From IMG/VR virus record IMGVR_UViG_3300029846_000001: 64,000 bases of DNA, one strand, 5' to 3'. Source of the stretch: a virus (taxonomy: Duplodnaviria; Heunggongvirae; Uroviricota; Caudoviricetes). The notes beneath the pieces were generated by a model. It worked only from the letters and a program-made list of their open reading frames with translations. It was not told the DNA's origin and searched no databases. Positions within the stretch are counted from its first letter, which is position 1. Every line of letters begins with the position of its first letter. Both the position numbers and the translations under genes were made by a program. Shown here one piece after another: positions 3,520 through 58,857 of this stretch.

Positions 3520-6500
3520 CAATAATATAGATAGATATAATCCTGCTGCTAAAACCACTTACGAAGATGTGGCAAGGCAAAGGAAATTAGCCGAAGAAGA
3601 GAATTACACTCCGGCTACATTACCAGAGACGACAACGCCTCTGGTTCCTAATTATATGCCTGGTGAAGGTGTGTATGCCCAACCTAAATTTCCGGATTAC
3701 GCATCAAGGATAGCTGCTGTCGAATACGAAGAACCGTATATAGCCAAGGAGATAAGCAACAGCTACTCGGAGGCACTGGCTCGTAACAGCTACAGGGGGG
3801 CTACACCTGCCCCGCCGCCTCTTAATCCCTATGGACCGAAGGTAAGTATCCGTGAAAGTCATCAGATGGGTAATGATGGGGTATGGCGTACAAAATATTC
3901 TAACTATATTCCGGGTATAAACAATGAAGATTATTATGCCAGGAGACAGAGCGGATGGAGTAAGTTTTGGAATGGTGTAGGCAAATTCGCTTTAAAATCC
4001 GCATTGTACGGTGCACAAGGAGTTGTGTCATTGCCTGACAAACTTATCAATATGGCATCTGAGGGAAGTTACAAAGCTGCGTTAAACACTAACATGGATA
4101 AGTTTGTAGGTGATCTTGACCAGCAAATAGACATGCTTCTTCCCCATTATTACAAGAAAGAGGTAGAAGATTATAATTTTGGTCAGAAGCTTTTTAAGGA
4201 TACCGGTAATTTCTTGTGGAATGACGTCCTTGGTAATGGTATGTCTTTTACCGTAGGAGCCATGATATCAGCGTACATGACCGGAGGACTTGGAGTTGGA
4301 TCATTGGGTAATATAGGCGCTAAATTAGGTGGAAGAATCGGAGCTAAGTTAGCAGCAAGGCAAGCTGCCAATAGGGGCATAGGAAGCCTTAAAAGCGTGT
4401 TTAACGACTATGTAAGAAAAGGAGTTGCTACCGGAAGAAATGTAGGGGAGGCGGCTAAGACCATGACGTTGTTGGCTACCAGTGCCGGATTCGAGTCATC
4501 GGTTGAAGCAAATTCTTTTATGAAGCAATCTGAGTCTGATTTCAAGGATTATTATCGTAAGATTTATGGTCGTGATCCCAATGCAGAGGAAATGGCTGTT
4601 TTTCGTAATTCTAATGCTGATGTAGGTAGTGCTATATTTGCCGCCAATATGGGTATCGTAGGATTATCTAACTGGCTTCTTTTTGGTAAGTATATAGGGT
4701 TAGGAGGCAAGGCTATACCAGGGTTGGAAAAGAGGCTCAACAAGCATTTATTTGGATTAGGGACGGAAGTTGCGAAGCCGGGAGAGATGGCTATTAAAAT
4801 AACCAATCCCAATATAGGACAGAAGATAGCAGGCAATGTTTTCAATATCATGAAAAGACCGGTATCTGAAGGCTTATGGGAAGAAGGATCTCAAGGTGCT
4901 GTTCAGAATACGGCTGAGGAATATGTTAAGTCAAGATATGATAATGTCGCCATGAACGGAGCCGTTGATGTTCTTGATGCTATTTCTGAAGGATTTAAAA
5001 AGCAATATACGTCTAAAGAAGGATGGACTGAAATAGGAATCGGTGCTATTATCGGTTCTTTGTTTGGTATGAGAGAAGGCTTCTTTGGGGTGAAAGAGTA
5101 TAGTAATAGTCAGATCTTGCTGGAAAGGCAAGTGAATGAATATAACAAAGCATCTTCTAATCTTAACACGGCGGCTTTGAATACGTTGAAAAAATCAATG
5201 AGTTTAGGGCCTCAAGTTCGTTCCGATGCCCAGTCTATGACTGGTAAGGAGCTTGATGATGCTATGTTTGAAAAGATGTCTATTGACAACCAAATGGGAA
5301 CCTTAGAGGATTCGGCTGAAAATTTCCGGCAGATGATTGATATGATGCCTATTTCGGAAATAGCCGAAGCTAATGGAATGTCTTTGGAAGAGGCAAAGAA
5401 ATACAAGGACTCTATTATTGATAATTATAATAATCGTCTTTCGGATTTCAGATCTGCCCAGAGTTTTGCCGAAGATCTTATAGGTGATGATTCTAAGATT
5501 GAGTTTAGGAAATACGTGGCTCGTAATGCTTTTCTTGGTCTTCAATCGGAATCAAGAATGAAAGACATAGCTTCTGTCATAGAAACGCTTTCGGGGCAGC
5601 CTCGCGTGGCGGATGCTCTAAGTACGTTCTCCCGGCTGTCGGACAGGGCAAGGGAGCGGGCGATGGCTATCCGTGGCATACGGTCAAGAATAGAAGAACT
5701 TGAATCCGAAATAGAAGATCTTGCTACCCGCCCTCGCAACGTAGAAGGGAAAGATCCACAAGCTGAATCCATACAACGAAAAACCAAAGAATTGGAAAGC
5801 CTTAGAACCAATTACAACAATTCGTTGTCTGAGTTATCAACGTTAATAGGAAAAGAGTTTTCGATAGAAGAGCTGGTAAGTAAAACCGAATCTGTTTTAT
5901 CATCTCCTCTTTCTCCCATAAGTTCACAAGATGTGATAGAAGCCTATGATACGCTTGTGGCTTTTGATGATTATTTTAATGTAAAATCAAGACAGGAAAA
6001 GAAGTTTACAGCCAAAGACAAAGCCATGAGATCCTTGGTAAATGAATACCGAAGAAGTTTGATGGACTATAGGAATATGAATAACTTCTTGTCTAAGATG
6101 CTTGATAAAAGATTCTTAGCTGAGGAAAACAGGGGGTTTTCAAAAGCGCTGTCTTCTCTATGGTCTACTCCTTATAAAGGGGATGACAAGGTTCCTGATT
6201 TTGCAGAGTCTAATAAAGTTGGTGAATATGACACTGATGAGGTAGTAGATCAAGCTGTGTCAGAAGGTAAGATTTCGGAAGACGAAGCTTGGACTATCAA
6301 GGCTTTTATGCATGCTCTTGATAAAGTAAGGGAAGATAGGATGAAGGAAGCAGAAGATGATATAAAAGAGTCACCGCTTACGGAGTCTGTATCGGATGAA
6401 GATTATGAGGCTGCTATGGATAATCCTATTATGGTTCCGGCCGTAAGGCAGTCTATAATTGATAAACTATATACAGGTAATGCCGATCTTCTTACTGAGA

Positions 6501-10155: not shown

Positions 10156-10698
10156 ATGAGAAGGAGATACGAAGATGTTTCAGGTCTTGTTCAGTATCAG
10201 TTGAAGACCAATCAGCAGGGGAATATAGAGGTTTATGTTGATGACAGGTTTGTTGGAAACGTAAGTGAAGGAGTCTGCAATTGGAAGGATATTGAATACA
10301 AGAGCAAAGTTACTATATCTTTGAAAGGAGTCGAGGATAAGGCTAAAACTTTAAGTAAAAGAGTCGGTCCCTATTGTCACATTTATAGCATATTTGGAGG
10401 AAATGAATCTTATCATGAAGGTCCGGATAGTAATATAAAAAAGAGTCCGGTTACCACCTTTATAATGTATTGTTATAAAAATGGGGATATTACAACTACC
10501 ACCACTTATACTAAAAATTTATCTGGAACTCTTCAGATAGGTAAAACACAATTGACTATCAATTACAAACAAAGTAAAAGTCAGTCTTTTTCTGGTGGTG
10601 ATAAAGATTATGTAACATCCGTATCTGATTTCCCTTTTGTTACTGGTCCAGGAGATAATAGCGTTGAGTTTGAAGGAGAGGGAAGATTAATAGTTTAA
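10156..10698 (+). CDS. small protein with MRRRY N-terminus (MRRR-leader family member 1)
   Basis: ATG 3 nt after stop of 2213-aa gene; ORF track lists GTG start at 10147; N-terminus MRRRYEDVSG shared with three other genes. Confidence 0.6.
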   Translation: MRRRYEDVSGLVQYQLKTNQQGNIEVYVDDRFVGNVSEGVCNWKDIEYKSKVTISLKGVEDKAKTLSKRVGPYCHIYSIFGGNESYHEGPDSNIKKSPVTTFIMYCYKNGDITTTTTYTKNLSGTLQIGKTQLTINYKQSKSQSFSGGDKDYVTSVSDFPFVTGPGDNSVEFEGEGRLIV

Positions 10699-10867: not shown

Positions 10868-11398
10868 ATGAGAAGGAGATTTTTTAATGCTGCGGATAAT
10901 TTTATGGGAGGATGTTATAATAAGTTATCCAATGAAGATATAAAAAGGCTTGGAGGAAAAAGACCTTATGTATGTCAGTTTAATAAAATTCATATACATA
11001 TAGGACCTGTATTAAAAGATCATGATTCTGATGTTAGTTACATAATGTTTAATAGTAATTGGAATCAAGGTGGTTATGAATCTATGGTTTATAATCATAG
11101 CAATAATGGTATTTTTATATTAGGTGAAAACAAAATTGGTAACATAGAAGATCATATACAAGATCTAACATATTGGTACGAATATGATCCAAGCATTAAT
11201 GAAAATTATTGTTATTTTTATTATGAGGCTAATAACAGCGGAAATGCTATCAAGTTGAATGGTGAGTTTGGTGATACCAGTACTGTTTTCAACATTCCCA
11301 GCTTGGAAGTCACCACTCTTCGTGATGGCAGTTTGAGTTTTCCGGAGATTTATATAGAAGGAATTTGGGATCCGTCATTGTATAAGTCGGTTTTATAA
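10868..11398 (+). CDS. small protein with MRRRF N-terminus (MRRR-leader family member 2)
   Basis: ORF (track start 10859 is GTG; ATG at 10868); N-terminus MRRRFFNAAD; preceded by duplicated 3' end of the upstream giant gene, so a tandem paralog or cassette of 10156-10698. Confidence 0.6.
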   Translation: MRRRFFNAADNFMGGCYNKLSNEDIKRLGGKRPYVCQFNKIHIHIGPVLKDHDSDVSYIMFNSNWNQGGYESMVYNHSNNGIFILGENKIGNIEDHIQDLTYWYEYDPSINENYCYFYYEANNSGNAIKLNGEFGDTSTVFNIPSLEVTTLRDGSLSFPEIYIEGIWDPSLYKSVL

Positions 11399-21048: not shown

Positions 21049-24000
21049 ATGGTATCAACGTGTATTATTAAAAGAGATAATAAAAAGAAAGTTGTTTCTG
21101 TCTCTACCAGATCAGGGGACAGGTCTATGTTGTTTGATAAGATAGCATCTATTCCTCTTATGGAGAACAGGGAACGGGCTACTACTGTTTTTAAAACCGT
21201 ATTTTCCAACAAGTTCTTAAAGGCTTTTGGCGACTGGAGAAAGAGAGTGCCTATCAACAAACAGGCTTATAATAAGGTAAAATCCAACATCGATCTTATC
21301 CCAGAAGCCTACAGAGAAAGGGTGCTGGATAAGGCTTCTAAGATGAGTAACCCTGTTCTTGTGTCAAAATCAGATGCACCTTATGAAATCCGAGAATCGG
21401 GCTTTGGATTTTACAGCCAAGATCTGGGTGATAATATTATGTTGGTAGATGCTATGGTCCCGTCAAGTATTTCCGTACCGGAAGAACCAGGAATAGACGC
21501 CGGGCAGTATTTACAAGATGCTATATCTTCGGACTTCACTCCCGTATCTGTGGTACAGGATAAGGGTGTTAATTATATGGTTATAAAAGACGGTCTTAAG
21601 ATATTTAGCCCAGAGGAGTTACCAGAAACAGATTCTAATCCTGTGGGTGTAACGTATCAGACCGGAGAGCCTCGTTTGTTTTTCATGAACGATCGTAGTC
21701 AATTATTTGAAGATTACGGAGAAGCTCTTCGCTCTGGCGGGAATGATATCAGAATAGGGTTCTTATCAGGCACCGTTCAGGAATCTGCCGTGGATGGCGT
21801 GGCAGACATTACTTACAAAGCTGGAAAGTATGTTCTTAATAATCTCAAATCTTTTATACCGGTCATGACCGCTTCTGCTTCTACTTCTTTATCAACAAAA
21901 GGTGGTATAATTAACTACCTTATAAAGAAAGGTCTTTTGTCCGGATCTAAGATATTCGATTCTGAAACAAGAAGCTATTATCTTACAGGAGAAGGTCATA
22001 CAGGACAAATTAGACTTTTCAATTCAGCCTTATCATACACCGAGCTCCGTAATCATTTTGGTTCCGATGTTTCCATGAACGACCAAGGTATGATAACCAT
22101 AAGCTCGTTGGATAATAGTAAGGTAACTATGAGACTCGCCACCGGAGGAACGGAAAGGGTTAGCAAAGAGCAGATAAAGAACGATCTTAAGTCGGGAAGA
22201 TACAATGAATTGGACGCCAAGTACGATCATTTTGATGCGCTTGTAGTTTCATTCATATTAGAAGACAACGATCTTTACGCTGATACTAAAGCTAAGATCG
22301 TATCAGATTATAGCAGGCAGGAACGTGATCAACGAAATTCTATTGTCGAGATACTGAAAACTCTTGGCGTTAGTGTCATAGGTATGACCGATTATATAGA
22401 GAAGTACCAAACCAAATACGGGCATGAACCTTCTGCTAAGGCATTGGCGGATATTGCCAATAACGTAATAGCAGTTGGTGAAGATGCTACTTTATCTGAT
22501 TTAGTAGAAGAAACAGCCCACTTCCTTGTAGAGGCATACAGAGATCAGAATGCTGTTGAGGCTGTTCTGCAAGATGTAGAAGGTACGGAAGAGTGGAACC
22601 AGTATGCAGGTCAGTATTATAATACATACGGTAAAGCGTATGAAGGAGCTGAGCTTGATAATGCTGTTAGGAGAGAAATTCTTGGAAAGATCCTCGCCAG
22701 GGAGATGCAGACCGGCACAGCACAGGCGCCGGTAGAGCCCACCTCCTTCCTGGGGCGCGTCCGGCGGCTTTTCTCTGGAATAGTAAGCTGGCTTAAATCA
22801 GCTTTATCAACCCAAAGACAAGATTTGAATAACGTTATTAAAAACATTCGTGATCTTGCCATTACTGACATAGATAAAGGATTTGACACTTCTCTGTTAA
22901 AGGATAATGACTTTACATTATACTCCCTTTCTTCTATGAACAAGAACAAGTTTCTTGAGTCTAAGATCAGATCGCTAAGAAAAACATTAAGAGACTTACG
23001 TCAGATAAGCTCTGATAGGGCTGTAACTACGTCTATGACCCTTGCGCAGCTTAAGACCATAGAAGATAAGATAAATAAGGTAGAGACCGAAATAGACAAG
23101 AATGAGATGGCGGCTGCCATGAACAGCATGATCTCTACAGCCGAAGCTCAGGTCAGATACTTAAGCAATGTGGTGAACACCATCCTTCATGGTGATACCA
23201 AAGACGGCAAGCTTCATTTCAATACCAATGATCGAAAGAACGTAGATATTATCAACAATCAGGTTCTTCCGATCATGAACGATCTTCGAGGATATATCCG
23301 TAACAGAAGTACCGAATTTGATGAACGTGAAAAGCAGGATTATACAAATAGGATCAATACCGTCATTGCCGACATCAATGGTATTCAGTCTGATATTAAA
23401 TCAGTACAAGACCTTGATGAAAGCACGTTGCTTGATAAGTTAATGAACGAACTTCATGTGCCGGCAGATAAGGTAAAGAGAGTAAAAGAATTTTTCGACA
23501 AGGTTCAACACGATGTTTCTTGGATAAGTAGGTGGTTTGGTATATTAGAGCATTCTTCCAGTCCGTTCAATAACGCTCTTGGAGCTATGATTGCCAAAGA
23601 CAATTACAATGCGATGGTGAATGCCCAGCCCGCCATATCCGATTTCCTGGCATATGCGAAAAAGCATGGTTTTAACAAATCTGAATTTGAAAAACTGCTT
23701 CAGAAAGTAGATGGCAAAACTTCTAATTACCTTCGTAGTGCTCTTGATATGGCTAAATACGATCGTAATAAGAAGCTGGCGCAGATGCGAGCGTTTGCGA
23801 CTGCCATGAACATAGAGATATCAGAAGAAGAAATTGGTGATGTGGTTGACAATAACCGTAATTACGTATTTAAAAGAGAAGTAGTTGACAAGGATGGAAA
23901 TACGGTTACTGAAAACGCTAAATTCAAACCATCGTCTGATAGAGTTAATACCGATATTTTTACCATCGAGCAGGAAAAGATCTATACAGAGCAGATGGAA

Positions 24001-27000
24001 AAGTGGGATGCTGAAAATTCGGAACTGGAATTTAGCGAAAGTTATGCCACAAGAATGGAATCCATATACAAAAAGGCTGAAGAAGAATTAGGGCATCCGG
24101 TTTCTCAAACAACCAAAGAATACCTTAATGCTCTATCCAGGCAAAAACGGATATTGAGGCAGCCTTTTATTGATAGCGGTGGTAATTTTGATGAGGTTGC
24201 CTATTTTAAAAGCAGCAATTACGAAGAAGAAGGACTGCTTCGTAAACAACGTAAGGAAGCAGCTTCAGAATACATATATGTAGGAACCAGGAGAGTGGAA
24301 AAAACCGGCGACCAACTTAAGATGGCTAAAGAAATACAAGCTATAAATGAAGTTTGGAGAAAGGAATCAAATAATGTTACCAATGCCGTATCAGAATCGT
24401 TTTTGCAAAAATTAAGAACGATTCAGAGCGAGTCGGGAGGAGAAGCTGCGCTGAAGACACTTATGTTGGGAGGTCACCTGTCGTTCAATGATCGGTTTTG
24501 GAATGAAGTAGAATCGGAACAGTCGGCGCGTACCGAATCAAATAACAAGGCTTCGTATCTTAAAATGGCGCATGATATCATTAGTTCTACGACAAGTGAT
24601 AGAGATGCGACTGACGTGGATTCGATTGTGAAAGATATAGAAAAAAATAAGGCCATTATCAAGGAAATAATCGGAAACAACCGAGATGTGGCTGATATCG
24701 GAGAAATTAACGAAGCGACATTTACCTCATCTGAAAGAGATGCTTTTAGGGCCGCATCTGAAGCTATTGAAGCTGATTACGCTATCTTAATAGATTATGC
24801 TAAGATGGTGGGTCTTGAAGATATTGATAAGTACCTTACTAAAAGCAGTAAGGCCGAAAACGAAGTAAATCAGTCTTATTTAAATGCTCTTGCTGACTCC
24901 AAGGAAGTGGAATGGAAGTTCGTACAACGTCATACTACGGCGAAGAAAGCAAAAAGGATTCAGGCTTTAAGGGATAAGCTGTTTAAGGCTGCTGATAACC
25001 GATATCTGTTTACCGTATCTGAAACCAACTACCTGTCAGAAAAGCTTGGTATAAGCAAAGAATTAGACGGTAGAGATTTCAGGAATGCTGTTAATGCTAA
25101 GATGGCCAGCTTGTTTTTAAATAATACAAGAGAAGAGGGCATAGAAGAGACCAATGCTATTGTTAATGAATTTGCCAGGAGCCAGGTCTTTTCGTACTAT
25201 AAACGCATGGCGCCTACCGGATATGCGGCCATGATCGACAAAATAGGTCGAGGTGAGATAGATGTGGCGCAGATGGTTAAGGACGTACAAAACGGTACAT
25301 CCACCCAAGATTATGGCATGGACATATCGTACCTGTCTTTCGACCCTGCAAGGGCATGGGTGGCTGAATCTGAAGCCGAAAATAGCGGTCGTAATCCTGA
25401 TTATGTAAAAGATCATGGGTATGGTCATCGCATGCCTAAGAAAAGCCTGTATCGTGATGAATCGTATCTCAATGACTTTGGTATCAAGTATGATGCTGAC
25501 GGTAATGAAGTTGCTACTAAAAACGTAGAGCAGTGGAATATGATTCAAAAACTCAAGGAAATAAAAAGACAATCCCTTGATCTATACAAAGAGCAGAGTC
25601 CCAATTTGTATGCTATTCCACAGATATCAAAACAAGACATAGAACGTATGGAAGGATTGGGTATTAACTTCAAAAATACGGTTCGTAATTTTGTATCAGA
25701 TCTGTGCCTGGACAGAGTAGACGATTCTCTATATGGTAAGACCAGGCAAGGGGAAGTATATGATCCGGAAGACAGACTTAGGTCTATACCTAAATACTAC
25801 ATATATGAGTTGGAGAACCAAGATGATGTATCTCACGATTTTGGCTACTCTTATTCGATGCTTATGATGCAGTCATCGTTATATAACGAAAAGCAGAAGT
25901 CTATAGAGCTTGCCCAAGGACTGGAGCAGATGTTACTGAATAAACAATTTGAAGGCGGTAAGAAGGCTGAAGCAACCCAAGCATATCAGATGTTCAGGGA
26001 CTTCTTCAACGATCATTATTATGGCATTAGGATGAACACCAAAAAACTTACGGTGAACATCGGAGGATATACGGTAGACCTTACAAGAATTATGATGGCT
26101 GTTGAAAGATTTATGTCGGTTATGAACTTGGCACTGTCTCCGTTTGTGGCAGCTACCGGCGCCCTGACAGGTCATATCAACCTCATCATGGAATCTGCCG
26201 TAGGACAGTATATAAGCAAAGACTCCCTTAAATACGCATCGGCTGAGTTTTCACGTCTTGCGCCATCTTGTATAGCAGAAACCGGAGACATAGATAGGAA
26301 AAGCAAATTATATGTCATAGGTGAGAGAATGGGGATATTCAATATCCGAAATCGTATGTATGGTGCCGGATACAATAGAGCAGCCAGGACCTTAATGCGT
26401 TCGCCTATGTATGCTTTTATGGAAATCCTGAACTACCCTCTTGATCCGCAGGTTATGATTGCTACTATGGACAATGTTCGTTATTACAAAGGCCGGTTCT
26501 ATACGTTCCAAGATTTCAAGATGGAAAAAGAACGTAATAAAGAACAGAGTACCATAAAAAGAGAATGGAACGCATTAAAAGATCGTACTTTATGGAGTAT
26601 GGTAGATGTCGTGGATGGGAAGGTGGTTGTAAAGCCCGGATCGGGTGTTACTGTTGAGGAAGTTGAAACCCAGATGGCTATAACCAGAAATCAGGTTCGT
26701 AGCTTGTCACAGATATGTAACGGATCTTTGAATGAAGAAAACCGAACTGCCGCATCGCGCAACTGGATAGCCAGGTTCATGACCGCCCACCGAGGATGGT
26801 TGGTGCTGGCGGCTCAACGTCTGTGGAAAAGACGTGGCTTCAATTTCCAGACAATGCAAGAAGAGGAAGGGTTGTCAATTACGTTAAAGAATATGATAGC
26901 CAAAACATTTAGCCTGGCTTCCGAGTCTGGTATGAAAAACATCATAGATGCCTGGAACGAAAATAAAGACAATATGAATGAGGTAGAAAAAACTAATCTC

Positions 27001-27471
27001 AAACGCCTCAGTGTCTATGCCGGCACGTTTCTTATCATGCAAGCCGTATCTATGCTTCTTGCCGGATGGCGTGATGATGATGAAAACGAAGAAAGTTGGC
27101 TTACTCAATTTGGATCCTATGTCGGATTCAGAACCATAAACGAAATAGCTTCACAGATGCCGTTTATTATGGAGCTTAACGTGGTAGATATCATTAACGA
27201 TCCGTTTGTTATGGGGCGAAAACTGAAGGATCTTACCGATCTTAGGAATTATTCACTTGATAAAGTAACATCCGGTACATACAAGGGAGAGTCTAAGTTA
27301 TTTAGGCAACTCGCCAAACAGACGTTTATCAAACAATGGTATAATATCAAGACGCCGGAAGACGTAGCGCGCGCCTATAATTGGTGGCAGCAGACGAACA
27401 ACAAGTCAATGATGTTCTTCATCGGCGCTACTCCTGATTCGGAAGGGGACGATGATGTTAGCTACAAGTAG
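21049..27471 (+). CDS. giant hypothetical protein, 2140 aa (virion/tail/ejected protein; coiled-coil-rich, hydrophobic C-terminal segments)
   Basis: 2140-aa uninterrupted ORF; long helical/coiled-coil stretches; C-terminal hydrophobic helices (TFLIMQAVSMLLAGW); followed by a strong terminator. Confidence 0.85.
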   Translation: MVSTCIIKRDNKKKVVSVSTRSGDRSMLFDKIASIPLMENRERATTVFKTVFSNKFLKAFGDWRKRVPINKQAYNKVKSNIDLIPEAYRERVLDKASKMSNPVLVSKSDAPYEIRESGFGFYSQDLGDNIMLVDAMVPSSISVPEEPGIDAGQYLQDAISSDFTPVSVVQDKGVNYMVIKDGLKIFSPEELPETDSNPVGVTYQTGEPRLFFMNDRSQLFEDYGEALRSGGNDIRIGFLSGTVQESAVDGVADITYKAGKYVLNNLKSFIPVMTASASTSLSTKGGIINYLIKKGLLSGSKIFDSETRSYYLTGEGHTGQIRLFNSALSYTELRNHFGSDVSMNDQGMITISSLDNSKVTMRLATGGTERVSKEQIKNDLKSGRYNELDAKYDHFDALVVSFILEDNDLYADTKAKIVSDYSRQERDQRNSIVEILKTLGVSVIGMTDYIEKYQTKYGHEPSAKALADIANNVIAVGEDATLSDLVEETAHFLVEAYRDQNAVEAVLQDVEGTEEWNQYAGQYYNTYGKAYEGAELDNAVRREILGKILAREMQTGTAQAPVEPTSFLGRVRRLFSGIVSWLKSALSTQRQDLNNVIKNIRDLAITDIDKGFDTSLLKDNDFTLYSLSSMNKNKFLESKIRSLRKTLRDLRQISSDRAVTTSMTLAQLKTIEDKINKVETEIDKNEMAAAMNSMISTAEAQVRYLSNVVNTILHGDTKDGKLHFNTNDRKNVDIINNQVLPIMNDLRGYIRNRSTEFDEREKQDYTNRINTVIADINGIQSDIKSVQDLDESTLLDKLMNELHVPADKVKRVKEFFDKVQHDVSWISRWFGILEHSSSPFNNALGAMIAKDNYNAMVNAQPAISDFLAYAKKHGFNKSEFEKLLQKVDGKTSNYLRSALDMAKYDRNKKLAQMRAFATAMNIEISEEEIGDVVDNNRNYVFKREVVDKDGNTVTENAKFKPSSDRVNTDIFTIEQEKIYTEQMEKWDAENSELEFSESYATRMESIYKKAEEELGHPVSQTTKEYLNALSRQKRILRQPFIDSGGNFDEVAYFKSSNYEEEGLLRKQRKEAASEYIYVGTRRVEKTGDQLKMAKEIQAINEVWRKESNNVTNAVSESFLQKLRTIQSESGGEAALKTLMLGGHLSFNDRFWNEVESEQSARTESNNKASYLKMAHDIISSTTSDRDATDVDSIVKDIEKNKAIIKEIIGNNRDVADIGEINEATFTSSERDAFRAASEAIEADYAILIDYAKMVGLEDIDKYLTKSSKAENEVNQSYLNALADSKEVEWKFVQRHTTAKKAKRIQALRDKLFKAADNRYLFTVSETNYLSEKLGISKELDGRDFRNAVNAKMASLFLNNTREEGIEETNAIVNEFARSQVFSYYKRMAPTGYAAMIDKIGRGEIDVAQMVKDVQNGTSTQDYGMDISYLSFDPARAWVAESEAENSGRNPDYVKDHGYGHRMPKKSLYRDESYLNDFGIKYDADGNEVATKNVEQWNMIQKLKEIKRQSLDLYKEQSPNLYAIPQISKQDIERMEGLGINFKNTVRNFVSDLCLDRVDDSLYGKTRQGEVYDPEDRLRSIPKYYIYELENQDDVSHDFGYSYSMLMMQSSLYNEKQKSIELAQGLEQMLLNKQFEGGKKAEATQAYQMFRDFFNDHYYGIRMNTKKLTVNIGGYTVDLTRIMMAVERFMSVMNLALSPFVAATGALTGHINLIMESAVGQYISKDSLKYASAEFSRLAPSCIAETGDIDRKSKLYVIGERMGIFNIRNRMYGAGYNRAARTLMRSPMYAFMEILNYPLDPQVMIATMDNVRYYKGRFYTFQDFKMEKERNKEQSTIKREWNALKDRTLWSMVDVVDGKVVVKPGSGVTVEEVETQMAITRNQVRSLSQICNGSLNEENRTAASRNWIARFMTAHRGWLVLAAQRLWKRRGFNFQTMQEEEGLSITLKNMIAKTFSLASESGMKNIIDAWNENKDNMNEVEKTNLKRLSVYAGTFLIMQAVSMLLAGWRDDDENEESWLTQFGSYVGFRTINEIASQMPFIMELNVVDIINDPFVMGRKLKDLTDLRNYSLDKVTSGTYKGESKLFRQLAKQTFIKQWYNIKTPEDVARAYNWWQQTNNKSMMFFIGATPDSEGDDDVSYK

Positions 27472-27607
27472 ACGAAGAATATCGGACTTGCATTGTTTTT
27501 GTATGATTCCAATATGCTATATTAGCATCGTCAAAGAGTAGATTGTACGTTTTTTGTTCTTACTTGAAAGATTATGTAGGTTTAATTTTTTCTGAAATTG
27601 TTTTCTT

Positions 27608-27650
27608 ACCGGTTCTCAGTCATAGATGATAGGGAACCGGTTTCTTTTAT
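27608..27650 (+). terminator. Rho-independent terminator (accggttc...gaaccggt followed by ttcttttat)
   Basis: 8-bp perfect stem 27608-27615 / 27634-27641 followed by a T-run. Confidence 0.5.
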
Positions 27651-27684
27651 GTTGTCAATTATTGCTATCTTGCAAACAAAAATC

Positions 27685-28099
27685 ATGAGACGAAGATTTC
27701 AAATAGGGATGGGGGGTAAATCCCTCGCTTATAATCAATAAAGGCATATATATCCAACATGTAGACGGAGGATTATATACGAAAGAAAATTGGTCTAATA
27801 AAGGATATTCCAATAATCTATGCAATGGAATAGCTCTTGTAGATAAAGTGTGTTTTGTTATAGCCACCGAATATATTGGCACATTTCGTTGGGGTAAGGA
27901 TGGAGAAATAGACAATATATTTGCACAAGATAGTTCTAATATGGGAACTATTAAAAAGGATTATTGGGGGCGTGAAAATCAGAATGCGTATCTTGAATAT
28001 GATACCAGTAATACAGATTACGCTTTTAATAAAGCTAATAGCTATTTATTTAAAAATGGTCAAAATGGATATGTAGGTGGCGCCGGAGAGTTTTTTTGA
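27685..28099 (+). CDS. MRRR-leader family member 3, split by a G6 homopolymer: MRRRFQIGMGGKSLAYNQ* in frame 1; a -1 shift at 27711-27716 joins it to the 27848-28099 ORF (total about 137 aa)
   Basis: ATGAGACGAAGATTT start like the other family members; a 6-G run immediately after codon 9; the downstream frame is open from a TAG that overlaps the G-run through to 28099. Confidence 0.4.
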
Positions 28100-28302
28100 T
28101 ATCATTGTATGCGAATGAAATAAACGAATGCCTTTTAATGGTAGGAGGTACGATAATGAGTAATAGAATGTGGACATCCACTCGAAATACAAAATTTTCC
28201 TATTCGTGGTATTATGATATAAACATCCAAGGAGACCATTTGGATACAGGTTCAAGGGATAGTTCACATTATGTCCGCCCTTTTACTGAATTAATTTTAT
28301 GA
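28096..28302 (+). CDS. hypothetical protein, 68 aa (TTG start in track; internal ATG possible)
   Basis: ORF only. Confidence 0.3.
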   Translation: MISLYANEINECLLMVGGTIMSNRMWTSTRNTKFSYSWYYDINIQGDHLDTGSRDSSHYVRPFTELIL

Positions 28303-28306
28303 AATT

Positions 28307-28756
28307 ATGAGAAGAAGATTTGAAAATATTAAGACAGTTGCCGGCGTCAAGATCCCTGTTTTTGCTTGTTCGATTTCGGCCCCTACAACCACATGGCGAA
28401 ATCCTGTACCTATTCTTGGTTGTAGATACCGATCTAATGGAGCAACTATGGCGGCTTCCTATGTTTTAGATGAAATTAATAATAGCAAGGTATGTACGAT
28501 GGGCGGTAATCCTATAAGTTGTACGATATCAAATTCTGGACAATATATCCAGGCTTACTTTAATGAAGGACAGGTAACAGGTGATATTATATTACAGTTT
28601 ACGATTGGAGACGTTTTTTATTATTTCTTTATTACAGAAGGATCCAATCAAGTACCTCAACTGAAATTAAGTCCAAGTACTCACCTTATTCATTCAATAT
28701 ATAAGATAAGTACAATTGGCAGCTTTGTCCCTATTGATACCTATGTGGAATTATAA
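28307..28756 (+). CDS. small protein with MRRRF N-terminus (MRRR-leader family member 4), 149 aa
   Basis: N-terminus MRRRFENIKT; Cys-containing, beta-rich composition. Confidence 0.55.
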   Translation: MRRRFENIKTVAGVKIPVFACSISAPTTTWRNPVPILGCRYRSNGATMAASYVLDEINNSKVCTMGGNPISCTISNSGQYIQAYFNEGQVTGDIILQFTIGDVFYYFFITEGSNQVPQLKLSPSTHLIHSIYKISTIGSFVPIDTYVEL

Positions 28757-34352: not shown

Positions 34353-35770
34353 GCTTTTATTCTATTATAATATTCGATAATCTTTTCTTTTCTATCTCCT
34401 GGTTTTACTGCCATATTCTCAGCCAAGAACCTAAAATACGACACCGGTATGTCCTTGAATCTAATTCCTTCATATTTTCCAAACCACATTATTATACTGT
34501 CAAGATCGTCTTCTCTCCTACCATCTCCATTCACAGATTTAAGCGAGGCTGCCCGGCGAAGGATTTCGTCTTTGGTAATAATATCACCCATCCTTATATT
34601 GGACAGAAGTTGATCGCCGGCAAACATACACCAGCCTTTAGAAGGGAATTGTTCGATTGTCAAGTCTTCTATCCGACCGAAACGCCTCATGTTGTCGCAG
34701 CAATCAACTATCAGTGCCTCTTTCTTGTCAGGATGGATGCGAACGGCACGGCCTACAATCTGGTAAAATACTGAATATGAGAATGTTGGACGCCCAAACA
34801 TCACACAGTCAAGTTCAGGAAAGTCAAATCCGGTAGCAAGCGTTGAATAATTAAAAACCACCTTCAACTTGCCTTCTTTGAAATCGGATATGATTTGTTC
34901 TCTTTTCTTTTTGGTTGTTAGCGATGTTACGACACCGGTTATGGCTCCCATCTTGGCATTCATGAACTCTGATATTCTATTACATGATTCAATAGAATCC
35001 ATGCAAACCAAAATGGCTTTACGTTCGTTCATAAGTTGAAGAAGGCGCTTGTAGATAGAGTTGTTTAAGCCATTTCGTACAATACTTTCTTTAATAGATT
35101 CGTTGGTGTATTCAGCTCCGGTGCTGTTCAATATCAGAGCCGATTCATCAAAAGACCATCGTTCGTACTTAAGTGGACACCAAAACCCTTGAGAAGTTAA
35201 TTCTTGTATTTGAGTCACATGAACTATTTTCTTGAAGAAATTATGCTCGTCTTTCGTCAGCATATTGAGCTTGCTGTAGTTTCCTTCCAGCATGGAACTG
35301 TAGGTTCGGAGGCGGCAGGGAGTGGCGGTGAAGCCCAGCACCTTCGCCTCTGGGAACCTGTTCATAAACTCCATAAATTCAGAACCTTCTTCAGGAGAAT
35401 ACCCGCTATGCACCTCATCTATCAATAATGTGTCTATCCCTATATCTTTCAACCTTGCTACGTCTTTCTTTATGCTTTTAAGTGTAGCATAAGTCATAGC
35501 CGATAACTCTTTTTTTTTACATGAAGCAGAATATATGGTAGGTTTAGAACCGAATGATACAGCCTTCGCATAATTCTGCTCCAGAATCTCTTTAGATGGC
35601 TGTAATACAAGGATAGGTCTTTTTAATTCATGAGCTATCTTGCTAATTATCAAAGACTTCCCCGCTGCACACGGCAAGACTTCTATGCCAGGCTTCTTAG
35701 ATCTTCCTGTAAGGAACTTAAGCCCGGCATCTACTGCCTCTTTTTGGTAAGGTCTAAGTTCAAAGCCCAT
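34349..35770 (-). CDS. superfamily-2 DEAD/DEAH-box type DNA helicase, 473 aa
   Basis: RPYQKEAV (Q-motif-like); motif I LPCAAGKS; motif II LIDEVH; motif III GFTATP; C-terminal W/F-rich domain (MWFGKYEGIRFKDIPVSYFRFL). Confidence 0.75.
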   Translation of the reverse strand: MGFELRPYQKEAVDAGLKFLTGRSKKPGIEVLPCAAGKSLIISKIAHELKRPILVLQPSKEILEQNYAKAVSFGSKPTIYSASCKKKELSAMTYATLKSIKKDVARLKDIGIDTLLIDEVHSGYSPEEGSEFMEFMNRFPEAKVLGFTATPCRLRTYSSMLEGNYSKLNMLTKDEHNFFKKIVHVTQIQELTSQGFWCPLKYERWSFDESALILNSTGAEYTNESIKESIVRNGLNNSIYKRLLQLMNERKAILVCMDSIESCNRISEFMNAKMGAITGVVTSLTTKKKREQIISDFKEGKLKVVFNYSTLATGFDFPELDCVMFGRPTFSYSVFYQIVGRAVRIHPDKKEALIVDCCDNMRRFGRIEDLTIEQFPSKGWCMFAGDQLLSNIRMGDIITKDEILRRAASLKSVNGDGRREDDLDSIIMWFGKYEGIRFKDIPVSYFRFLAENMAVKPGDRKEKIIEYYNRIKA

Positions 35771-42192: not shown

Positions 42193-42205
42193 ACGTTTCT
42201 TTTTT

Positions 42206-51161: not shown

Positions 51162-51407
51162 TTATTTAATATGCTTATCGGCTGGATTGATTATCAATCC
51201 ATCGTCACATGAAGGGAATGATATGTTAGATTCTCCATTATCAAGATTAGTCAGTTTAACCGTTCCAGCATATTCATCATCCACAAAAAACAATTGACCC
51301 GAAGAAACCACAAACCTGCATTGATATGCATTCATCATTGCTCCAAGTTGTCTAATCTTAGTTTTAATCTCTAAAAGTTGAGCGTTGTTGATTATATTCT
51401 TATTCAT
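51162..51407 (-). CDS. hypothetical protein, 81 aa
   Basis: ORF tiled in block. Confidence 0.4.
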   Translation of the reverse strand: MNKNIINNAQLLEIKTKIRQLGAMMNAYQCRFVVSSGQLFFVDDEYAGTVKLTNLDNGESNISFPSCDDGLIINPADKHIK

Positions 51408-58764: not shown

Positions 58765-58857
58765 GTGAGATGCCCAGAATCGAACCAGGACCGGCACATA
58801 CATACCGGCACGCCGCGCCATCCCTCTATGATACACAAATAGACATGCCTATTCTCA
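58765..58857 (-). tRNA. tRNA-like element A (canonical T-arm; long, possibly type II or intron-containing; cloverleaf not verified)
   Basis: Minus-strand reading gives ...cctgg-TTCGATT-ctggg-catctca-c with a 5' partner tgagaat 5 bp from the inner end; lies in a 170-bp noncoding gap. Confidence 0.3.

Follow-up and report, generated by a model that had tools for sequence, protein, structure and literature searches.

Variable homopolymer tracts in a lectin-like gene of an uncultured human-gut phage: a probable phase-variable locus, doubly OFF in the sequenced allele

The stretch of DNA considered here (referred to below as the window) comprises 64,000 nucleotides (nt) of the IMG/VR virus record IMGVR_UViG_3300029846_000001, a member of the Caudoviricetes. 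On its plus strand it carries a gene whose reading frame is broken twice, each time at a homopolymer. The gene belongs to a small family in this phage, whose products begin with the basic leader MRRRF or MRRRY, and once both breaks are repaired it encodes a protein of 205 amino acids (aa). The gene and its parts are listed below, with csAssE-Sib as the intact reference relative.

27685..28302, plus strand: whole gene, a doubly frameshifted (OFF) allele for a 205-aa MRRR-leader protein, predicted to be lectin-like; the window aligns to the csAssE-Sib orthologue in three frame pieces.
27685..27741, plus strand: piece 1, in the ATG frame, translated as MRRRFQIGMGGKSLAYNQ and then a stop; only the first 10 residues are native.
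27711..27716, plus strand: G6 tract, the out-of-frame (+1) state of a poly-G element, as judged from the sequence and its relatives; with the GGGAT before it, it reads GGGATGGGGG(G).
27716..28099, plus strand: piece 2, the gene body (residues 11-137) in the +1 frame, ended by a TGA that results from T7; 95.5% aa identity to csAssE-Sib residues 5-137.
27966..27970, plus strand: G5 run inside the gene, an internal control that is nearly invariant (G5 in 112/113 of the unbiased set described below and in 123/123 pooled loci).
28091..28097, plus strand: T7 tract, the out-of-frame (-1) state; in the genotyped relatives the modal form is T8, within the codons for E-F-F-L.
28096..28302, plus strand: piece 3, residues 138-205, again in the ATG frame, with the last five beta-strands of the predicted lectin-like fold (model strands 161-202); 97% identity to csAssE-Sib residues 137-205.

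The six-G run occupies exactly 27711-27716, its first G closes the codon of Met-9, and it is one of three G6 runs in the window. Translation from the ATG at 27685 gives MRRRFQIGM and ends at the TAA at 27739-27741 with an 18-aa product, and the next frame stays open up to the TGA at 28097-28099. A sequence-only reading of the window had already recognized this break of the MRRR-leader gene, and the 137-aa open reading frame (ORF) which it expected after deletion of one G was obtained by computation as well. It had also placed a TAG across the G6 run; this TAG lies at 27704-27706 and overlaps the preceding GGG (27706-27708) instead. Its proposal that the 137-aa protein represents the complete gene product holds in part: the ORF exists, but its stop is made by a second indel, T7 at 28091-28097 where T8 is expected, and the intact product has 205 aa. 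Past T7 the original ATG frame is open again and adds 68 codons, ending at 28302. The gene is split into three pieces in the frames 0, +1 and 0, and the removal of one G together with the addition of one T gives a single 205-aa ORF. The genotype-to-product map, which we computed, places the G tract at codons 9-11 and the T tract at codons 136-138, where both set the reading frame from inside the ORF.

The sole close deposited relative is csAssE-Sib (OR575929.1; human gut, 151 kb), which shows 98.6% DNA identity over the region. Its orthologue WOZ57324.1 is annotated as one intact coding sequence (CDS) of 618 nt for 205 aa, and the base alignment of the two genes contains exactly two indels, G6 versus G5 and T7 versus T8. 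The frame downstream of the G run, whose coding conservation the sequence-only reading had made a check, is truly coding, being 95-97% identical to the annotated intact CDS. Among about 80 orthologous CDS pairs, four change their frame between the window and csAssE-Sib. One is the studied gene; the remaining three, two ORFs of 56 and 52 aa and a doubtful N-terminal extension overlapping a DnaB-like gene, differ at short homopolymers, namely at 51285 (A6 versus A7), at 58822 and 58879 (C3 versus C4, A4 versus A5) and at 42197. In a census of 1-nt indels over the whole window against csAssE-Sib, most gaps were alignment noise in divergent stretches.

The doubly broken allele was found a second time. 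It lies on the contig NODE_112 of ENA assembly ERZ827502 (SPAdes, 125 kb, coverage about 321x), which matches the window at 100% identity over 6,252 bp, G6+T7 included. Furthermore, 8 public contigs drawn from several sources, NODE_112 among them, encode the 83-aa product that is specific to T7; another of the 8 belongs to a lineage of 94.5% identity with G4+T7 (Logan SRR23880814), and high-coverage contigs exist with T7 as well as with T9. No contig of the same strain as the window was found in another tract state, the next best being 98.9% identical.

To read the tract lengths in the population, two samples were used. The first consisted of the best 80 tblastn hits in IMG/VR, which is biased to intact genes and under-represents broken alleles; in this set G4, G5, G6, G8 and G9 were present, and the T tract looked invariant with T8 almost everywhere. 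The second, unbiased set comprised 121 related gut-phage contigs (41 metagenome contigs and 80 of 113 IMG/VR contigs), which were scanned for the exact flanks of the G tract, blind to its state; all statistics rest on exact-flank scans only. Here G5 was found in 92 contigs, G6 in 16, G4 in 7, G9 in 3, G8 in 2 and an interrupted GGGAG in one. The modal and ancestral G5 accounts for 77%, and 28/120 (23%) are length variants. The T tract was T8 in 77 genomes (73%), T7 in 15 and T9 in 13, i.e. 28/105 (27%) are variants. Hence, the check for length variation at 27711-27716 that the sequence-only reading had proposed was positive among the relatives, and the relatives do not all carry G6 with two true ORFs: G5 is in the majority, and csAssE-Sib has one continuous ORF. 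Both tracts vary independently (Fisher p = 1.0), and only 58% of the genomes are intact at both of them. The combination G6+T7 is expected in about 2% and was observed in 1/105, plus the window. The G7 allele was absent from roughly 200 related contigs, about 120 of them blind-sampled, with G8 in 5 distinct contigs and G9 in 5; this suggests jumps of +3 or +4, or a rapid passage through G7.

As a side observation, the rare G4 goes together with T7 in 3/4 scorable genomes (L085, L114, L301), which are small numbers. The idea that G4+T7 spread as one transferred allele was rejected, because 9-32 substitutions inside the gene separate these three genomes from each other.

The variation is specific to these tracts. 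A control G6 at 3795, in the gene of a 2213-aa structural protein, was G6 in 85 genomes and GGGAGG in two, with length variants in 0/85, and a control T9 at 35510 in the helicase gene was T9 in 35/35. The G tract differs significantly from the G6 control (Fisher p = 9e-8) and from the G5 run inside the same gene (1/113 variant; p = 3e-8), above which, at equal length, it varies 25-fold or more; the T tract differs from the T9 control at p = 1.5e-4. When the 30 sufficiently covered homopolymers of the window were scanned, all coding runs in large genes were invariant (A8, A7, T7, T9, G6). The varying coding runs were the two of the studied gene, a T6 in the adjacent MRRR paralogue (6/31) and another T6 that lies three codons from a stop.

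Recurrence was assessed on a neighbour-joining tree of flanking single-nucleotide polymorphisms (SNPs) by Fitch parsimony, in comparison with randomly permuted labels. In the unbiased set, 20 G variants require 18 changes and 23 T variants require 20, the same as for random labels; the biased set gave 19 changes for 21 G variants. Clades of OFF alleles are absent from the tree. Individual pairs tell the same: L008 (G5) and L041 (G6) have 0 mismatches over 6,603 bp besides the one G, the loci L012 (G5), L029 (G8) and L043 (G6) are mutually 99.2-99.7% identical, and L123 and L248 differ as T8 versus T9 between identical flanks.

The alleles that are OFF through their tracts are otherwise sound, as 34/34 of them give intact 205-codon ORFs once the tracts are repaired in silico. 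Since in-frame expanded G8 alleles exist, a shifted tract can land back in frame. Among alleles that are ON by their tracts, three independent nonsense mutations (L054, L073, L110) and one A-run double frameshift (L122) were found. The ratio of nonsynonymous to synonymous polymorphism (pN/pS), calculated from 75 distinct repaired alleles, stands at 0.10 over residues 1-45, compared with 1.19 over residues 46-137 and 0.96 over residues 138-205. Because of the low value over residues 1-45, the gene must be regarded as under selection and not dead. It is maintained, its N-terminal part being conserved while the body evolves fast, yet it is often knocked out.

Direct family searches gave no answer on the function of the protein. 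With Pfam and PHROGs, the repaired protein obtained an insignificant hit to Lcl_C (PF07603; E = 0.6, 10.8 bits versus a cut-off of 34.9) and no PHROG, and the other three MRRR proteins of the window obtained an insignificant Zn_ribbon_2 hit (E = 0.19, for the paralogue at 10156) and no PHROG either. Since these searches were insignificant, the function was sought in the structure. An exhaustive phmmer search with an 82%-identical full-length homologue (P0002) found 687 relatives, in which residues ~17-203 form one domain, located at the very C-terminal end of proteins with 965-2,437 aa or standing alone in proteins of ~220 aa. Some relatives match the Pfam family Lcl_C (P0074 at 1e-10, 42.4 bits), and one giant relative also carries BspA-type leucine-rich repeats. 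The AlphaFold2 model, built on a 66-sequence alignment, reached a predicted local distance difference test score of 92.7 and a predicted template modelling (TM) score of 0.89. It shows a disordered leader (residues 1-16) and, for the remainder, one compact alpha/beta domain whose last strands lie at 161-202. Its top match in the PDB is 8q4e, the C-terminal domain of Legionella Lcl, with a probability of 0.97, followed by C-type-lectin-like structures (snaclecs, LOX-1, natural killer cell receptors) and the C-terminal domain of Bdellovibrio Bd2740. Matches in BFVD (E = 1e-15 to 1e-11, TM score 0.77-0.85) are to C-terminal parts of phage proteins, among them an annotated tail fibre protein and DUF1566 proteins of crAss-like phages.

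On the strength of the model, a C-type-lectin-like fold of the Lcl_C/DUF1566 kind can be confidently predicted, and the protein is probably a tail-tip adhesin. The context supports this role, as the gene lies 3' of a 2140-aa virion structural gene and the same domain ends annotated tail-fibre proteins; we infer that the protein sits on the virion. The best solved-structure match, the presence of Lcl_C in relatives and the DUF1566 matches in BFVD all connect it to PF07603 and 8q4e; the differences are that the studied protein stays below the Pfam threshold and that its domain has ~185 residues compared to the 117-position model. Because residues ~17-203 form a single domain, the stop at residue 137 produced by T7 or T9 removes part of one fold.

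The surroundings of the gene contain three further features.

28307..28756, plus strand: adjacent MRRR-family paralogue of 149 aa, intact in the window by its sequence.
27678..27682, plus strand: A5 run in the 5' leader, 2 nt before the ATG, length-polymorphic in relatives.
27608..27641, plus strand: terminator-like hairpin, then UUUCUUUU; minimum free energy -18.5 kcal/mol, z = -3.8, with 0/200 shuffles folding as well.

Four MRRR[F/Y] genes exist in the window, at 10156-10698, 10868-11398, 27685-28302 and 28307-28756. They form two pairs, each directly 3' of a gene for a virion structural protein of >2100 aa. Even homologues with no more than 35-38% identity retain the basic leader, which is disordered in the model, and distant homologues begin with MRRRFQNN..., MRRRYIGN... 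or MSSFRRRLM...; the leader may act as a signal for docking or assembly.

In relatives, the slot downstream of the studied gene (28307-28756 in the window) holds either the 149-aa cassette of the window type or a cassette of 245 aa, MRRRFENNAKLYEYKIVSDCIGGGV..., whose codons 22-24 contain a long poly-G (e.g. in L090, L089, L123, L106 and L108). In 52-53 genomes, the tract of the 245-aa cassette was G9 in 18, G10, the intact form, in 16, G8 in 9, and G12 and G6 in one each; the others have an interrupted in-frame 10-mer. The cassette is ON in 22 and OFF in 30 genomes (58% OFF). Its state is not associated with that of the studied gene (p = 0.78), and all four combinations occur (12, 18, 10 and 12 genomes). 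Two genomes that differ in this tract, L106 with G12 and L108 with G9, have identical flanks of 1,200 nt. Both genes share an I-G-G-G-V context, written ATA-GGG-GGN-GGG-GTA in the cassette and ATA-GGG-ATG-GGG-GTA in the studied gene. Moreover, the P0003 clade of the studied gene carries GGGGGAGGGG, and one IMG/VR relative (contig 120811) has an uninterrupted G10 in the studied gene, in frame and at full length. Because of the shared context, the P0003 clade and this G10 relative, the window tract is, as far as sequence comparison can tell, the AT-interrupted form of a family-wide 10-nt poly-G. A scan of the window for other near-poly-G elements found none. The window-type cassette has a variable run of its own, the coding T6 at 28614-28619 of the 149-aa paralogue (T5 in 1, T6 in 25, T7 in 5 genomes), which breaks the frame in 6/31 window-type cassettes. 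The T8 run of the studied gene is clade-specific, and neighbouring clades have TTTTCATTG or TTTTTATTG at this position.

The family also shows rearranged members. The database proteins P0063, P0064 and P0065 are chimeras, in which the N-terminus encoded by one MRRR gene continues into the body of its neighbour, or residues 1-40 of the studied protein into the C-terminal part of the 245-aa cassette, which follows the poly-G. Their sequences suggest cassette shuffling by recombination, i.e. module exchange. In addition, variants with in-frame internal deletions are present (P0006, P0007, P0010, P0017, P0020, P0021, P0048), which could instead be assembly artefacts.

Upstream, the hairpin at 27608-27641 sits between the 2140-aa virion structural gene (21049-27471; phrog_37651) and the studied gene; a simple terminator scan missed it because its stem has an internal mismatch. 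Since the terminator-like hairpin separates the two genes, the studied gene probably has its own transcription start. A sigma-70 promoter scan of the window gave nothing useful on the plus strand. The A run before the ATG is A5 in 93 relatives, A6 in 12 (about 11%) and more rarely A2, A3, A7 or A8, and all combinations of A and G lengths occur; being non-coding, it could affect translation initiation. An intergenic, likewise non-coding T6 further upstream (27550-27555) is T7 in about 40% of the relatives. Rescue of OFF alleles from an upstream start was considered and rejected: a long ORF arises only from the rare A6+G4 and would cross the terminator hairpin.

Taken together, we consider it likely that the gene is a slipped-strand contingency (phase-variable) locus of an uncultured human-gut phage, and that it is doubly OFF in the window. 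We favour this interpretation because the tract length sets ON or OFF, because the length changes are frequent, independent and tract-specific, because the OFF alleles are otherwise intact, and because a longer form of the same element gates the neighbouring paralogue. Slippage or a phase-variable switch, which had been suggested from the G run of the window, is hence supported by the 28/120 variants against 0/85 in the control, by the recurrence on the tree and by the family-wide poly-G form. According to this scheme, the gene would encode a short disordered basic leader (MRRRF...) and then a single C-type-lectin-like domain of the tail-fibre-tip kind. Codons 8-11, written as the G-rich GGGATGGGGG, would be the site at which slipped-strand mispairing in phage DNA replication adds or removes Gs. 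G5 and G8, being in frame, would be ON, and G4, G6 and G9, which end translation after 10-19 codons, would be OFF. The clade-specific T8 at codons 136-138 would act likewise, with T7 or T9 losing the last third of the fold. From the G6+T7 allele of the window a functional protein presumably cannot be made. We infer slippage as the mechanism, reversible switching and a selective use of it, e.g. through changed binding to host surface glycans or through avoidance of host defence.

Several observations weigh against such a switch. The modal tract of the studied gene is only G5, which is short for classical high-frequency phase variation. Consensus assemblies were examined, hence the polymorphism is between samples and not within populations, and some contigs of the two collections may come from the same samples. 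Inactivation is also not confined to reversible routes, because the nonsense alleles and the A-run double frameshift occur, and this is in keeping with a gene whose inactivation is simply selected for or tolerated. The pN/pS of about 1 over residues 46-205 could reflect relaxed constraint as easily as diversifying selection. Finally, the T8 tract is recent because it is absent from neighbouring clades, and it is better seen as an evolutionarily young, fortuitous hotspot rather than as a designed element.

These observations lead to the main live rival, in which a dispensable accessory gene suffers recurrent one-way loss. The homopolymers would then merely be the easiest break points, and OFF lineages would drift or be locally favoured and die out. 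We regard it as rather unlikely, although it is favoured by the nonsense alleles L054, L073 and L110 and the A-run double frameshift in L122, by the pN/pS of about 1 over most of the protein, by the recent origin of the T8 tract, by the position of OFF alleles at the tips of the tree, as expected for dead ends, and by the many internally deleted protein variants in the databases. However, the G5 run inside the gene would be equally able to inactivate it, and it varies in 1/113 genomes as compared to 28/120 at the 5' tract. All 34 tract-OFF alleles are otherwise intact, in-frame expanded (G8) and locked interrupted (GGGAG) alleles exist, and the first 45 residues are under strong purifying selection. 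Moreover, the same 10-nt poly-G context is found in a second MRRR gene, with lengths of G8-G12 in about equal proportions, which is hard to see as mere decay.

Programmed recoding, by which the G6 and T7 states would be expressed through +1/-1 ribosomal frameshifting or transcriptional slippage and the gene would be functional as written, is very improbable. P-site re-pairing is formally possible at both runs (GGG to GGG; UUU to UUU beside UGA), and bacterial RNA polymerase is known to slip on runs of 8-9 T or A. But 77% of the relatives have G5 and 73% have T8, and they need no recoding; since the majority state requires no shift, programmed frameshifting, which the sequence-only reading had also offered for the G run, is not supported. 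G6 is a minority allele whose frame-0 read-through stops after 18 codons, G6 and T7 together are rare, a conserved stimulatory structure is absent, and the tracts are found lengthened as well as shortened, a variation that is incompatible with a conserved recoding site. Sequencing or assembly error is least credible of all and can be excluded on grounds of coverage, recurrence and control tracts: each of the two lesions is a homopolymer indel of 1 nt, the classic kind of error, and the three small ORFs also differ from csAssE-Sib at homopolymers, but the identical 6,252-bp stretch at about 321x has the same G6+T7, the T7-specific product recurs on 8 contigs including the 94.5%-identity lineage, and the same lengths return across assemblies in which the control G6, A8 and T9 tracts never vary.

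A wider proposal, which we put forward tentatively and with clearly less confidence than the contingency locus itself, is that a widespread gut-phage lineage of ~150 kb possesses an array of MRRR tip-protein cassettes, each gated by a 5' poly-G, whose full form is G10, and each switching independently, and that this array, together with the shuffling of cassettes, tracks the phase-variable glycans of the host. If this is true, natural populations would be mosaics of adhesin phasotypes, and the array would be the first natural-population multi-locus contingency system for a phage of gut commensals. Apart from that, in about 40% of the populations the consensus genome shows the lectin-like tip gene with its frame broken. 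If the states alter host recognition, the locus would lend itself directly to the study of how gut phages follow the phase variation of host surfaces. There is also a practical side: gene callers split or drop such genes, as can be seen in the many truncated protein clusters, and in viromes such loci will make the numbers of 'pseudogenes' or 'programmed frameshifts' look too high.

Simple-sequence contingency loci are well known from bacteria such as Campylobacter, Haemophilus and Neisseria, where the usual tracts are G8 or longer. Accounts by van der Woude from 2011 and by Bayliss from 2012 are said, in texts that cite them, to deal with these bacterial loci. The phage locus resembles them in the tract at the 5' end of the ORF, the short OFF peptide and the independent loci that give combinatorial 'phasotypes'; it differs in being viral, and its studied G5 run falls short of the bacterial G8+, which the neighbouring cassette does reach. 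Among phages, hypermutable poly-G tracts have reportedly been described in the receptor-binding-protein genes of Campylobacter Fletchervirus phages by Sorensen and colleagues in 2021, as cited in later texts. Common to both are poly-G tracts inside host-recognition genes, ON/OFF subpopulations and several such genes per genome. In contrast to those phages, the present one is an uncultured human-gut phage of ~150 kb from another lineage, its interrupted G10 has an active run of only G5, a second hotspot in a T run truncates the same protein, and the evidence is between-sample metagenomic polymorphism instead of experiments.

Homopolymers in T2 agt and T4 rIIA were recently shown experimentally to be reversible contingency loci, and putative ones to be widespread (Gomez, Barrick & Waters, bioRxiv 2025; PMC12633550); reversion was about 1000-fold faster than that of a SNP, and the loci serve for bet-hedging (PMC12633550). 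These T-even loci are similar to the present one in their homopolymers within ORFs, in +/-1 frameshifts by polymerase slippage and in the loss-of-function SNPs found alongside. The differences are that A runs of at least 6 nt in the agt and rIIA genes of laboratory coliphages were studied there, as minority reads within populations, whereas here a large share of natural populations has an alternative length as its consensus, and the gene is an accessory structural one with a lectin-like product. Experimental demonstration so far covers Campylobacter phages and, in the 2025 preprint, laboratory coliphages and vibriophages, and a 2025 review calls phage homopolymer contingency loci 'an exceptional case' (PMC11959909). 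Our literature search found no description of such switching in phages of gut commensals or in this lineage.

A different route to variation is known from the C-type-lectin tail-fibre proteins diversified by diversity-generating retroelements (Bordetella phage BPP-1 Mtd; gut Quimbyviridae, PMC8008677). The likeness lies in the distal tail target with a C-type-lectin fold, and the shared purpose would be varied host recognition. However, those systems act by reverse-transcriptase mutagenesis of adenines, whereas the variation recorded at the two tracts here is one of length only. The kind of mechanism is already known; new here is its occurrence in a prevalent uncultured gut phage, with unusually clear evidence from natural populations.

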